From: a virus
Virus genome (UHGV): UHGV-0206243
Reading direction: 5' to 3' (one strand)
DNA length: 13,605 nucleotides
Shown in pieces: positions 1-8,193 of this stretch; position 1 is the first letter of the stretch; every line of letters starts with the position of its first letter. The position numbers and the translations under genes are program-made. Under the pieces are notes generated by a model. The model had not been told where the DNA came from. It saw only the letters and a list, made by a program, of their open reading frames with translations, and did not search any database.

Positions 1-63
1 AATCGGTGGAGCTGCATGACAAAGTCATCGGGCATTATCTGAACATAAAACACTATCAATAAG

Positions 64-1449
64 TTGGAGTCATTACCTGATACTCTGAGAAGAGAAACTT
101 TAGAATCATTTGCTATGATTATGCGATTCACTATACAGACAGTAAAAAATAATGATGAGTTGGTCGCGAAGGCCAATAATTTGATAAATGAATCTTTGAA
201 TGCTATTGTTAATTTTGATGAGTTTGAGGAGGCTAAATTAAATATTATTGCTGATAAATTGTGCCAGTTGATTATGCTTTTTAGAGATGCTGGCAATAAT
301 ATTATGTTTAGCCGGGCGACCTCAGAAAACTTACGCAGATTTATATATGAATGCCCATTGAAGAGAATCAAAGATTGCCTAACTAAAGTTGTTTCTATTT
401 CAGGAAATAAATTGTCTGCATCTAAAATAAGTTATGACTTCAGATATGATAAAAATAAAGGTGTGGTAAAGGTTTCGAGATTTGTTCTTCTAAATAAGAA
501 TGATGAAAGAATAGTTGAGCTGTTACCCAAAAAGAATAATGTCGTTGTATTGTCGGATGTTATCCCTCAAGAAGTATTTAGAGGATGTAAGTCTGATATC
601 TTAGAAATCATGAATCCTTATTCTTTGGGGCTATTCCCTGTCAATGAAGGACGTGGTTTTTATGTTTTTTTTGGAAATTCCTACAACCCTGTTGTTAACT
701 TTTTGTCACATGTTGTTTCTCTGGGAGTATTAATGCTTTCAAAAATGTTTGATGGCGAAAATGTTAATCATGTCAGCCCGTTGAGGGCATTTCCTCAGCG
801 TTATTATTTATTAGATAAAACAGTCAATCATGCTCAGTTAAATTCTGCTGATGGCTCTGAGTTGGCGGAGATTCTGAAGAAAAATACAAAAATAACAGAA
901 AACATAAACCTTCTTCTCGCTGAATTTAACTTAGCGGTTGATATAGTTAGAGTTAATGACATAATTCATAAGATAGTTATAAACCAAGATGCTGTTAATT
1001 TAGAATTGACAGATGTAGGGTTTGGAATATCACAAGTGTTGCCTGTCTTGGTTCAAGCTTATTTGTCACCAAAGGGCTCGATTACAATAATAGAACAACC
1101 AGAAATACATTTGCATCCTAAAATGCAGGCATGGTTAACTGACGCATTAATTAAAATATCTATGCAAGAAAAGAAAATTTTTATTATTGAAACACATAGT
1201 GATGCATTAGTTAGACGGATTAGATTAAGAATTGTTGATGAATCAAGCGAACTTACTGAGGACCATGTGGCAATCTATCATCTTGAGCGAGATGAAGAGG
1301 GAACATCAACCTTACTAAATAGAGTGGCTGTGAATTCTGATGGAGATATCACATGGCCAAATGAGTTTATGGATGTTGAGATTCAGGATACAATTAGAAT
1401 ACAGGAATTAAAAATACAAAAAATAATGAACTCAAAGGGAGTTCATTGA
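64..1449 (+). CDS. Hypothetical ABC/SMC-type ATPase C-terminal-module protein (signature-like, Walker-B-like and H-loop motifs; no Walker A); candidate defence component
   Basis: 461-codon ORF in about one-third-GC DNA. C-terminus reads GFGISQVLPVL...ITIIEQPEIHLHP...IFIIETHSDAL, resembling the signature/Walker B/H-loop end of AAA_21/DUF3696-type ATPases. No GxxxxGK[ST] anywhere. Start is uncertain: TTG at 64 follows an in-frame stop at 46-48, first ATG is at 112, and no clear Shine-Dalgarno precedes either. Confidence 0.6.
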   Translation: MESLPDTLRRETLESFAMIMRFTIQTVKNNDELVAKANNLINESLNAIVNFDEFEEAKLNIIADKLCQLIMLFRDAGNNIMFSRATSENLRRFIYECPLKRIKDCLTKVVSISGNKLSASKISYDFRYDKNKGVVKVSRFVLLNKNDERIVELLPKKNNVVVLSDVIPQEVFRGCKSDILEIMNPYSLGLFPVNEGRGFYVFFGNSYNPVVNFLSHVVSLGVLMLSKMFDGENVNHVSPLRAFPQRYYLLDKTVNHAQLNSADGSELAEILKKNTKITENINLLLAEFNLAVDIVRVNDIIHKIVINQDAVNLELTDVGFGISQVLPVLVQAYLSPKGSITIIEQPEIHLHPKMQAWLTDALIKISMQEKKIFIIETHSDALVRRIRLRIVDESSELTEDHVAIYHLERDEEGTSTLLNRVAVNSDGDITWPNEFMDVEIQDTIRIQELKIQKIMNSKGVH

Positions 1450-1450
1450 T

Positions 1451-2452
1451 ATGCTTTGTGCTGTTTGTTTGTGTCCTGAATTTGTTGCTGCTAATATTTC
1501 TGATGTTAAAGTTTTTAGCGGTTTTTTTATTGAAACCATTGTTAATGGTGAAAATGAGTTGATTCTTGATGCTGATGGAAAAATTCGCTTAGGTTATTTA
1601 AAGTCTTGCGGAAACAACAAGGATTCTTTTTTGTTTTTTAAGAAGTGGGAGTCTGAGTTATCTAAAGCTCCTTCAGGCAAGATATTGCGTACACCAGTGC
1701 CGAATAGTTCTGAGGATATTAAGGATATAGTTGTTTGTGCAGTTGCTAATGCAGCCACTACTTTTGATAAGCATATCGTAGTGTTAGATAATAATAGTTA
1801 CTCTGGATATATTGATGAATTAATCAGGCAAAGGATTAATTTGTTAAATCTTAATAGTATAAGCTTAATATCAAAGGATGGTCGAGTGCAGCGTCCTTTG
1901 AATTTTATAAAGTTTGATAGTGATTTATCTTGGGTGCTTCAAAGATTGGGGCGTCGCTCTGCTAAAGGATATGGTGAAGATGATTTTAATGATTTTATAC
2001 GGGATATGTTATTAGCTAAGAATTATGAGGTAAAAGATCAAACTAGAGAGGGAGAGTCTCAATCTGGTAAAAGTGCGGGTGAATTAGATCTTGTTATTGA
2101 AGATAAAGGAAATCTATTTGCTATAATAGAAGCATTGATTTTAAAATCTCTAGATCAAGCTAACATATTAAAGCATTATTCAAAGCTAATTGGTAACTAT
2201 AATCCTATTAATGTTAAACGCTTGTTTTTAATTGCTTATTATACTGGTGCAAAATTTGATGCTTGGTGTGAGAGATACATTGATTATCTAAAAGAGATTA
2301 CTCCGGTAGATATTGGTGTAGAATCTCATGAGATAGTTGGGATTAAAGAAGTGGAGACTCCATATATAGGTTTGAGAAAAATTGAACATCATTTTAGATA
2401 TGCGGGAGAACATTATTTTTGTGTTCATTATGCAGTCAAGATGGCTCGGTGA
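1451..2452 (+). CDS. Hypothetical protein, putative effector partner (possible PD-(D/E)xK-like nuclease core)
   Basis: 333-codon ORF. Shine-Dalgarno AAAGGGAG sits about 10 nt upstream, inside the 3' end of the preceding gene, and the ATG is 2 nt after that gene's TGA. Segment GELDLVIEDKGNLFAIIEALILK resembles the beta-strand core of PD-(D/E)xK nucleases but is not canonical. AT-rich like its neighbour. Confidence 0.6.
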   Translation: MLCAVCLCPEFVAANISDVKVFSGFFIETIVNGENELILDADGKIRLGYLKSCGNNKDSFLFFKKWESELSKAPSGKILRTPVPNSSEDIKDIVVCAVANAATTFDKHIVVLDNNSYSGYIDELIRQRINLLNLNSISLISKDGRVQRPLNFIKFDSDLSWVLQRLGRRSAKGYGEDDFNDFIRDMLLAKNYEVKDQTREGESQSGKSAGELDLVIEDKGNLFAIIEALILKSLDQANILKHYSKLIGNYNPINVKRLFLIAYYTGAKFDAWCERYIDYLKEITPVDIGVESHEIVGIKEVETPYIGLRKIEHHFRYAGEHYFCVHYAVKMAR

Positions 2453-2464
2453 TGTTTAATATGA

Positions 2465-2490
2465 ATGCACCTATAGGGTGCATCATTTTG
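2465..2490 (+). terminator. Candidate intrinsic terminator after the cargo operon
   Basis: Inverted repeat ATGCACC / GGTGCAT around a 5-nt loop, followed by CATTTTG, starting 12 nt after the stop at 2450-2452. The T-run is short, so this is weak. Confidence 0.35.
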
Positions 2491-2589
2491 CATGTTTAAA
2501 TACGTTCTCTATGTATGTGCGCTAGGCTTGACTGGCGCGCTTGTACTATGTTTATGCAACTGCATTAAAACCGACCCATGAAGCGGGCG

Positions 2590-2608
2590 GGCGAGGCGGG
2601 GAAAGCAC
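2590..2608. other. cos: P2-type cos cohesive-end sequence
   Basis: GGCGAGGCGGGGAAAGCAC matches the 19-nt P2 cohesive end as I recall it, and it lies just beyond the 3' end of Q as in P2. Confidence 0.8.
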
Positions 2609-7279: not shown

Positions 7280-7384
7280 ATGCCGATTATCGACCTGAAC
7301 CAGCTACCCGCACCGGATGTGGTCGAGGAGCTGGACTTTGAAACCATTCTCGCCGAACGCAAGGCGACACTGATTTCCCTTTAA
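7280..7384 (+). pseudogene. J: Baseplate protein J, N-terminal 34-codon stub
   Basis: [34 protein letters not shown] matches the recalled P2 gpJ N-terminus, then hits TAA at 7382-7384 where sheath-gene sequence begins out of frame. Confidence 0.85.
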
Positions 7385-8193
7385 CCGGTGTTAAACCGCG
7401 TATTCTTGGTGTGCCGGGGCTGGATACCAAAGAGGTGGCTGTTGCACTGGCATCAGTCTGTCAGAAGCTGCGCGCTTTCGGGTATATCAGCGCATGGGGC
7501 TGTAAAACCATTTCCGAGGTGAAAGCCTACCGCCAGAATTTCAGCCAGCGTGAGCTGATGGTCATCTGGCCGGATTTCCTCGCATGGGATACAGTCAACA
7601 GTACCACCGCCACCGCGTATGCCACCGCCCGTGCGCTGGGTCTGCGTGCCAAAATCGACCAGGAGCAGGGCTGGCATAAAACGCTGTCCAACGTCGGGGT
7701 AAACGGTGTTACCGGCATCAGCGCGTCCGTATTCTGGGATTTGCAGGAGTCCGGTACCGATGCTGACCTGCTTAACGAGTCTGGCGTCACAACGCTGATT
7801 CGCCGCGACGGTTTCCGATTCTGGGGTAACCGTACCTGCTCCGATGACCCGCTGTTCCTCTTTGAAAACTACACCCGCACCGCGCAGGTGTTGGCCGACA
7901 CGATGGCTGAGGCGCACATGTGGGCGGTGGATAAGCCCATCACCGCAACGCTGATTCGCGACATCGTTGACGGCATCAATGCCAAATTTCGTGAGCTGAA
8001 AACAAACGGCTATATCGTGGATGCGACCTGCTGGTTCAGCGAAGAATCCAACGATGCGGAAACCCTTAAGGCCGGAAAACTGTATATCGACTACGACTAT
8101 ACACCGGTGCCTCCTCTCGAAAACCTGACCCTGCGCCAGCGTATTACCGATAAATACCTGGCAAATCTGGTCACCTCGGTTAACAGCAATTAA
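7384..8193 (+). pseudogene. FI: Tail sheath protein FI, C-terminal portion only
   Basis: Sheath-frame homology ([18 protein letters not shown]... to ...[10 protein letters not shown]) begins at about 7384; the track ORF starts at GTG 7411. About 260-270 codons remain of a recalled ~396-aa protein. No native start or promoter. Confidence 0.85.

Follow-up and report, generated by a model that had tools for sequence, protein, structure and literature searches.

A candidate nuclease effector with a predicted restriction-endonuclease fold, encoded behind an OLD-type ATPase in the cos-proximal hotspot of P2-like prophages

The virus genome UHGV-0206243, a stretch of 13,605 nucleotides (the window is this whole stretch of DNA), carries near its left end a two-gene cargo: the remnant of an ATPase gene, ORF555, and directly behind it an intact gene of 333 codons, ORF333. 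The locus raises the question of what the second protein does and why it is kept next to an ATPase. The reading favoured here, at a probability of roughly 0.58, is that ORF333 is the nuclease effector of a two-gene anti-phage system formed with ORF555 and housed in the cos-proximal hotspot of P2-like prophages. The gene and the two domains predicted for its product are as follows.

1451-2452, plus strand: ORF333, the two-domain effector candidate, 333 residues, ATG start
1451-1870, plus strand: N-terminal PIN-like (Rossmann-like) domain, residues 1-140, without a conserved catalytic tetrad
1898-2449, plus strand: C-terminal restriction-endonuclease-fold domain (the C-domain), residues 150-333, a portable module

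ORF333 is a real, intact and conserved gene and not a chance reading frame, since an identical protein occurs in 651 index blocks of public assemblies, and its relatives in Enterobacterales and Pseudomonas form 53 clusters (E-values down to 1e-221). It was deposited as early as 2006 as 'ORF333' of phage P2-EC5, beside 'ORF555'. The upstream ATPase frame ends with a TGA at 1447-1449, and a single base (1450) separates it from the ATG at 1451, which matches the initial annotation, where the gene was said to start 2 nucleotides after the upstream stop. The Shine-Dalgarno sequence, AAAGGGAG at 1434-1441, lies within the ATPase gene, 9 nucleotides 5' of the ATG, as had likewise been noted. The corresponding junction has a 1-nucleotide gap in Enterobacter, a 2-nucleotide gap in Hafnia and an 8-nucleotide overlap in Pseudomonas, each version with a GGAG/GGG-type site 5' of the effector gene. 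The tight coupling to the upstream partner that was originally described is seen in all intact loci examined.

An AlphaFold2 model of ORF333, built on 40 relatives, has a mean predicted local distance difference test score (pLDDT) of 86 and resolves into two domains. The most conserved part of the protein is the core of the second domain (residues 176-265), with a mean identity within the family of 64%, compared with 42% for the N-terminal domain. In the predicted model, the N-terminal domain has the Rossmann-like fold of PIN domain nucleases. The D-E-D-D tetrad of these enzymes was not recovered: only D40 is invariant, strand 1 is followed by C8-P9, D92 is Asp or Glu in 84% of the sequences, and D113 is Asp in 71% and Asn in 29%. 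Judged from these residues, the N-terminal domain is an inactive PIN domain. At the end of strand 1, where the first catalytic Asp of a canonical PIN domain would be located, a conserved motif H-C-x-C-P is found (residues 5-9, window 1463-1477), of which C6 and P9 are nearly invariant. Pfam, NCBIfam and PHROGs returned no meaningful family for ORF333, and purC-like matches (E 0.017-0.047) were judged to be noise.

The predicted elements of the C-domain are a helix at 176-189, strands at 193-196, 214-218 and 221-231, a helix at 236-253, a strand at 257-264 and further strands. This order corresponds to the alpha-beta-beta-beta-alpha-beta core of restriction endonucleases, which is predicted with confidence in the model. 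The best matches of the C-domain among solved structures were all type II restriction enzymes, namely BstYI (8.6), BglII (8.5), BamHI (8.4) and OkrAI (8.4), followed by the DNase toxin CdiA-CT EC869, SwaI, McrC, NgoMIV, Bse634I, Cfr10I and NucC. Weak profile matches were also obtained: the PADLOC model CARF_PDDEXK over residues 174-250 (E 0.0076) and, among 37 relatives, the Pfam families DUF6602 (3e-4, in two) and HSDR_N_2 (0.0068, in one). Two segments with residues of the putative active site are the following.

2078-2146, plus strand: segment GELDLVIEDKGNLFAIIEALILK, residues 210-232, comprising strand 2 with E211 and D213, a hairpin, and strand 3 with E227
2174-2185, plus strand: H242-Y-S-K245 on the helix 236-253 that follows strand 3, with His in 272/272 and Lys in 271/272 relatives

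Conservation in the C-domain was counted across 272 relatives. Five residues (Q197, D213, E227, H242 and Y250) are present in all of them, and K245 in 271, with a single Arg. Nearly as constant are G210 (271), E176 and S203 (267 each), D196 (264), N180 (260) and E211 (256). Mapped onto the model, the conserved constellation consists of E176 and N180 on helix 1, D196-Q197, E211-x-D213, E227, H242-x-x-K245 and Y250. The two acidic residues expected of a PD-(D/E)xK enzyme are thus found in their places, D213 where strand 2 begins and E227 within strand 3, and both are invariant. The initial annotation had singled out the same Asp and Glu, in the segments GELDLVIED and IIEAL, and in this respect its proposal was borne out; the nuclease core that it had suspected is present in the model as well. 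Its lysine was not. The E-x4-K residue that it had put forward, K232, varies (S/N/E in the family; D/N/S/K/T across the relatives), and position 229, where the canonical ExK lysine would stand, is occupied by L, M, F, I or V in 272/272. Since these two positions fail while an alternative constellation is strictly conserved, 'degenerate', the word used for the core at the time, proved to be wrong.

Neither BamHI (E-x-E) nor BglII (E-x-Q) needs a lysine in strand 3 for activity, the third residue of their motif likewise being something other than Lys, and in enzymes of the Cfr10I/NgoMIV type, residues on the helix after strand 3 complete the active site. K245 is a candidate for a relocated catalytic lysine, and from this pattern of residues we infer that the C-domain is probably an active nuclease. 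Between strands 1 and 2 lies a Gly/Ser-rich loop, GESQSGKS (residues 201-208, window 2051-2074), which resembles a Walker A motif in this sequence and has the lowest confidence of the model, with a pLDDT below 50; in and after this loop, G201, S203, G206 and G210 are conserved. A reading as a P-loop was dropped, as K207 is present in only 184/272 relatives and the loop is of low confidence.

A profile search of 1.84 billion representatives revealed that the C-domain is by no means confined to ORF333. It was found in 1284 proteins (E up to 0.001), most of which align only over residues ~147-332 of ORF333, and in 263/278 retrieved proteins it is located at the C-terminus. Its fusion partners include Roc-COR GTPases with leucine-rich repeats, a NACHT NTPase (at its end), Schlafen AlbA_2 domains and a GHKL ATPase, and at one locus a stand-alone protein of ~395 residues lies in a defence island. 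A class of ~560 residues, encoded in LmuC-LmuB-LmuA operons of Bacillota and Bacteroidota, matches the PADLOC LmuA model PDLC03853 (1.4e-34 and 2.2e-30). The model of such an LmuA-like protein (pLDDT 87) has TPR-like helical repeats for 385 residues, followed by a C-domain of the ORF333 type, which is the only enzyme-like domain of this TPR-plus-C-domain subtype. The last ~180 residues of the subtype and the C-domain of ORF333 find each other in profile comparisons (E ~1e-45; reciprocal 1.2e-11) and share the same invariant residues.

It is conceivable, at slightly less than even odds in our judgement, that the C-domain constitutes an unnamed family of nucleases with the restriction-endonuclease fold, in which the catalytic lysine has moved to the next helix (E...D...E-A-h...H-x-x-K...Y) and which serves as a plug-in effector cassette in four or more kinds of immune systems driven by NTPases, namely Lamassu (with an SMC-like ATPase), a Menshen-like pair with an OLD-type ABC ATPase, Roc-COR GTPases and NACHT/STAND NTPases, with ORF555-ORF333 as an autonomous pair whose ATPase senses infection without a ParB-DUF262 sensor. 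Among the loci that were read, the Lamassu operons LmuC-LmuB-LmuA are found at L021 (1789-7689), L023/L024 (4264-8665) and L025 (4245-8689), with no recognisable N-terminal effector in LmuA; L021 has an additional upstream gene of 486 codons with weak CARF_PDDEXK/Csx1 matches. At another locus (L022, 261-5806), a homologue of the Tiamat protein TmtA (7e-138) is followed after 3 nucleotides by a protein with AlbA_2 and the C-domain (P0052) and then by a Fic gene, an arrangement that may represent a multi-gene variant of Tiamat.

The partner can be described from its intact copies, as the 555-residue ATPase gene is complete in 10/10 other Escherichia coli places that were read and was seen in the loci L001 (5705-7372), L002 and L011-L020. 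Full-length ORF555 is, by its profile matches, an OLD-type ABC ATPase (Pfam AAA_15 7.6e-25 and AAA_21 2.2e-17; DUF3696 weakly, E 0.16). In PADLOC, the closest model was NsnB of Menshen (2.3e-51, profile positions 107-338 of 345), followed by the HEC-03 ATPase (5.2e-43, positions 301-447 of 458, in the C-terminal third of ORF555), PDC-M55A (4.7e-41) and AriA (3.3e-28); the PtuA and GajA models were matched as well. The signature GFG and the Walker B IIEQPE, with Glu-Gln in place of Asp-Glu, are conserved in E. coli, Hafnia, Enterobacter and Pseudomonas. These features are comparable to the deviations reported for NsnB, a GxG signature and an EN Walker B (PMC12065111), and suggest ATP binding with slow hydrolysis.

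Which known system the pair belongs to was asked of each candidate in turn. The resemblance is greatest to Menshen, in which NsnC consists of an inactive PIN domain and a variable C-terminal nuclease, the inactive PIN being predicted to dock on the tail of NsnB (PMC12065111). ORF555 shares with NsnB the AAA_15/AAA_21 domains, a weak DUF3696-like tail, the GxG-type signature and the non-DE Walker B; the effector gene stands immediately 3' of the ATPase gene; and ORF333 has the layout of NsnC, a PIN-like domain without catalytic residues before a nuclease-type domain, at the level of fold and architecture only. In contrast to Menshen, where NsnA, a ParB-DUF262 plus ParBDB protein, is encoded 5' of the ATPase, neither NsnA nor any DUF262 gene is present in the E. 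coli, Hafnia, Enterobacter and Pseudomonas contexts read, ORF333 matches no NsnC model, and the 15 families described for NsnC effectors (BECR, Toprim, PLD, DUF4160, PB-UF1, DUF2103-like) do not include the restriction-endonuclease fold. The pair thus most resembles the NsnB-NsnC half of Menshen, yet it is not a Menshen system.

HEC-03 is similarly built from two genes, an ABC ATPase and a PIN-domain protein, and defends E. coli only when both are present (Payne et al., bioRxiv 10.1101/2024.01.29.577857). Its partner is a VapC-like PIN protein that is taken to be the effector, whereas ORF333 has a PIN-like domain devoid of the first catalytic Asp, carries an extra domain of 180 residues with the restriction-endonuclease fold and does not match the HEC-03 partner model. 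With Lamassu LmuA (PDLC03853), ORF333 has in common the C-domain and an ATPase partner of the ABC superfamily; it differs in that its N-terminal part is PIN-like rather than TPR-like, that no gene for LmuB (SMC-like) or LmuC is adjacent, and that ORF555, being of the OLD/AAA_15 type, has no coiled coil. Assignment of the pair to Menshen, HEC-03 or Lamassu was accordingly rejected, a defining feature being missing in each case (NsnA; a match of ORF333 to the HEC-03 partner model; LmuB/LmuC). PARIS (AriA-AriB), Septu (PtuA-PtuB) and Gabija (GajA) also place a nuclease partner or domain under the control of an OLD-type ABC ATPase on mobile elements, but their effectors are Toprim (AriB, GajA) or HNH (PtuB) proteins and not a PIN-like domain joined to a restriction-endonuclease fold. 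As for the BamHI/BglII/BstYI/OkrAI group, the Asp where strand 2 begins and the Glu in strand 3 are shared. The identity to the C-domain is only 8-12%, with no relation at the sequence level; the C-domain has a hydrophobic residue at E+2 and a conserved H-x-x-K on the next helix, and it belongs to an ATPase-controlled effector, unlike these sequence-specific enzymes with a cognate methylase.

The location of the pair is consistent with a role in defence. The cargo is AT-rich (GC content of 0.31-0.35, against 0.52-0.59 in the phage backbone) and ends just 5' of the following element, which we take to be the P2 cos site.

2590-2608, plus strand: P2 cos cohesive-end sequence, read as GGCGAGGCGGGGAAAGCAC, at the edge of the cargo hotspot, where the GC content rises to 0.52-0.58

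The match to the P2 backbone begins at about 2530-2555. In 10/10 E. coli places read and in Hafnia, the pair is flanked by gpA (the replication gene A) on one side and cos/gpQ on the other; it was also found in an integrase/AlpA island of Pseudomonas and at a chromosomal site in Enterobacter. The order, with the ATPase gene before the 333-residue gene, is constant in the contexts read. The cargo position corresponds to the old/tin locus of P2, which was shown to be a hotspot of anti-phage systems (Rousset et al. 2022, PMC9122126), and the pair itself is listed in Table S5A of that study as 'AAA_15/AAA_21 + hypothetical (WP_024249463 + WP_024249462)'. This row was the only trace of the pair in the literature, where no functional study of P2-EC5, ORF333, ORF555 or the protein accessions was found.

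In the window itself, the ATPase gene is interrupted by an insertion sequence, IS1, of which only the end is included.

1-77, plus strand: right end of IS1, ending ...GGAGTCATTACC, inserted in the ATPase gene and matching IS1-annotated sequence in thousands of E. coli records
78-1449, plus strand: 3' remnant of the ABC-type ATPase ORF555, residues ~100-555 (Pfam AAA_15 4.7e-15 and AAA_21 8.2e-12, C-terminal parts only; PADLOC NsnB 1.7e-35)

The end GGAGTCATTACC is presumably the IS1 terminal repeat, and intact loci align with the window only from base 78 onwards. The breakpoint falls after nucleotide 296 of the 1668-nucleotide ATPase coding sequence, by which the first ~99 codons, including the Walker A GANSCGKS (residues 28-35), are cut off. 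The remnant retains the signature GFG, the Walker B IIEQPE, the H-loop ETHS and the C-terminal DUF3696-like tail. The listed open reading frame of 461 codons from position 64 begins inside the IS1 end. The system in the window is probably inactive, because IS1 has removed the Walker A region and the promoter-proximal part of the ATPase gene and the prophage is decayed. An independent relative in Enterobacter roggenkampii (L008, 6502-6767) has a similar arrangement, with a 5'-truncated ATPase of 410 residues beside an IS1 InsA fragment and an intact effector; disruption of the ATPase gene while the effector is kept may be a recurrent event. The initial annotation had overlooked this disruption, along with the PIN-like domain and the wide distribution of the C-domain.

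How an intact pair would operate can be proposed by analogy, from docking mode and trigger to substrate and catalysis. As predicted for the Menshen proteins NsnB and NsnC, an oligomer of the ATPase would hold ORF333 through its C-terminal helical tail, which would bind the dead PIN-like domain. A phage cue sensed by the ATPase would change its nucleotide state, and ORF333 would be released or activated. The C-domain could then cleave nucleic acid, most likely DNA, with an active site made up of E176 from helix 1, D213 and E227 at strands 2 and 3, and a lysine supplied by the next helix (K245, with H242). As a result, the infection would be aborted or limited.

Several results weigh against the assignment of ORF333 as a nuclease effector. 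The (D/E)xK motif is incomplete, position 229 being hydrophobic throughout. Neither phmmer nor a profile hmmsearch of PDB sequences found anything relevant for ORF333, and a Foldseek search of the PDB with the complete two-domain model yielded no significant match, the best being Can2 with a probability of 0.25-0.38. In PADLOC, ORF333 hits neither an NsnC model nor the model of the HEC-03 partner. It is intact beside a truncated ATPase and IS1 in two lineages (the window and Enterobacter L008), which means that ORF333 is either harmless alone or still restrained by the ATPase remnant. Finally, in LmuA proteins that have been studied, the C-terminal domain serves docking and oligomerisation and the effector is N-terminal. 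This last point suits a different division of labour, in which the C-domain is a coupling or oligomerisation domain of the kind seen at the C-terminus of LmuA, sequestered by the ATPase and then released, and the PIN-like domain is the RNase effector, as in HEC-03. The C-domain is indeed the C-terminal domain of the LmuA matches (1.4e-34, 2.2e-30) in LmuC-LmuB-LmuA operons; in studied Lamassu it is this part of LmuA that docks on LmuB/C and tetramerises; it is C-terminal in 263/278 proteins; HEC-03 couples a related ATPase with a PIN effector; and D40, D92 and D113 are roughly at PIN-like spacing. Yet strand 1 of the PIN-like domain is followed by C/S-P instead of Asp, Asn replaces D113 in 29%, and D92 varies as well. 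The N-terminal 385 residues of the LmuA-like proteins are TPR-like repeats without an enzyme fold, which leaves the C-domain as their sole plausible effector. Six polar residues are constant or almost constant in proteins that work with LmuB, an OLD-type ABC ATPase, Roc-COR, NACHT or AlbA_2, which would not be expected of a partner-specific interface, and NsnB, the closest relative of ORF555, is predicted to bind its partner via the inactive PIN domain. On these four grounds (the PIN tetrad, an LmuA otherwise devoid of an effector, the polar residues and the docking of NsnB), a coupling role of the C-domain was ranked below the nuclease reading and is considered unlikely.

The C-domain might also have the restriction-enzyme fold but no catalytic activity and bind nucleic acid only for sensing or targeting, which would leave ORF333 without an enzymatic output. 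It would then resemble the inactive restriction-endonuclease domains with which some NsnA proteins of Menshen begin, and which establish that such sensor domains occur. The canonical ExK lysine is missing in all members, and no significant sequence match to characterised nuclease families was obtained in Pfam, NCBIfam or PDB sequences. Against a dead fold stand the retention of D213, E227 and E176, all invariant or nearly so, when the inactive domains of NsnA are described as lacking the PD-(D/E)XK motif, and the presence among the closest structural matches of BamHI and BglII, which are active without that lysine. Moreover, with the PIN-like domain dead too, the system would be left without an effector, and catalytic inactivity of the C-domain is regarded as improbable. 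Less probable still, and very unlikely on our estimate, is an addiction module of the toxin-antitoxin (TA) kind or another accessory prophage function, in which ORF333 would be a constitutive toxin neutralised stoichiometrically by the ATPase and not triggered by infection. Such a module would account for the tight translational coupling; Pfam labels AAA_21 as a 'putative AbiEii toxin, Type IV TA system' domain, and HEC-03 is somewhat toxic on induction. Against it, ORF333 has stayed intact in two independent lineages beside an ATPase gene devoid of its 5' end and of Walker A. This would hardly be expected of an unrestrained toxin, except where the ATPase remnant is expressed and still binds it. 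In the related PARIS, deletion of either gene is non-toxic, and the locus is a documented defence hotspot.

If the pair is a working defence system, it would be a compact two-gene addition to the class of ABC ATPases with effectors that includes PARIS, Septu, Gabija, Menshen and HEC-03, and it would mean that the ParB-DUF262 sensor is dispensable for the existence of a Menshen core of the NsnB-NsnC type. The modular logic of such systems is already well known, nothing is overturned by the present case, and the copy in the window is broken. The C-domain is of wider interest. It is widespread, with at least 1284 representatives at 50% identity, escapes detection by any Pfam model and is fused to diverse immune NTPases; naming it would annotate many unexplained proteins of defence islands, including a Lamassu subtype. 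If it is a nuclease, the TPR-plus-C-domain LmuA proteins are not devoid of an effector. It also offers a way to probe how far the active site of PD-(D/E)xK enzymes can be rearranged.

The remaining features concern the ends of the gene and the prophage around it.

1424-1448, plus strand: junction hairpin of 9 bp, arms 1425-1433/1439-1447; the 66-nucleotide junction segment has a minimum free energy of -14.3 kcal/mol (z -3.0)
2465-2493, plus strand: terminator-like hairpin with a T-rich tail, 13 nucleotides after the ORF333 stop codon
2778-3812, minus strand: portal gene Q

The junction hairpin contains part of the Shine-Dalgarno sequence (GGGAG, 1437-1441) and the ATPase stop codon, and would make translation of ORF333 depend on ribosomes that complete the ATPase gene. 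It is found only in the E. coli version and is judged to be a lineage-specific refinement, because it is not conserved in Hafnia, Enterobacter or Pseudomonas; hairpin-mediated coupling was consequently dropped as a conserved feature.

The stretch as a whole is a decayed P2-like prophage of E. coli. After Q, its genes are a truncated terminase P, lysB/C, R, S, V, W, a truncated FI, FII, E, T, U, D and ogr. In three pieces, 10.8 kb of the window correspond to 22.4 kb of intact P2-like phages. One deletion, at window position ~4780, spans 5.7 kb of an intact relative and removed the region from the 5' part of the terminase gene P through to lysA; by another, at ~7280-7410, the tail-fibre region J-I-H-G and the start of FI were lost. 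The prophage is a cryptic remnant. A second terminator-like hairpin lies at 2757-2772 on the minus strand, after the portal gene, and together with the one at 2465-2493 it brackets the cos region.

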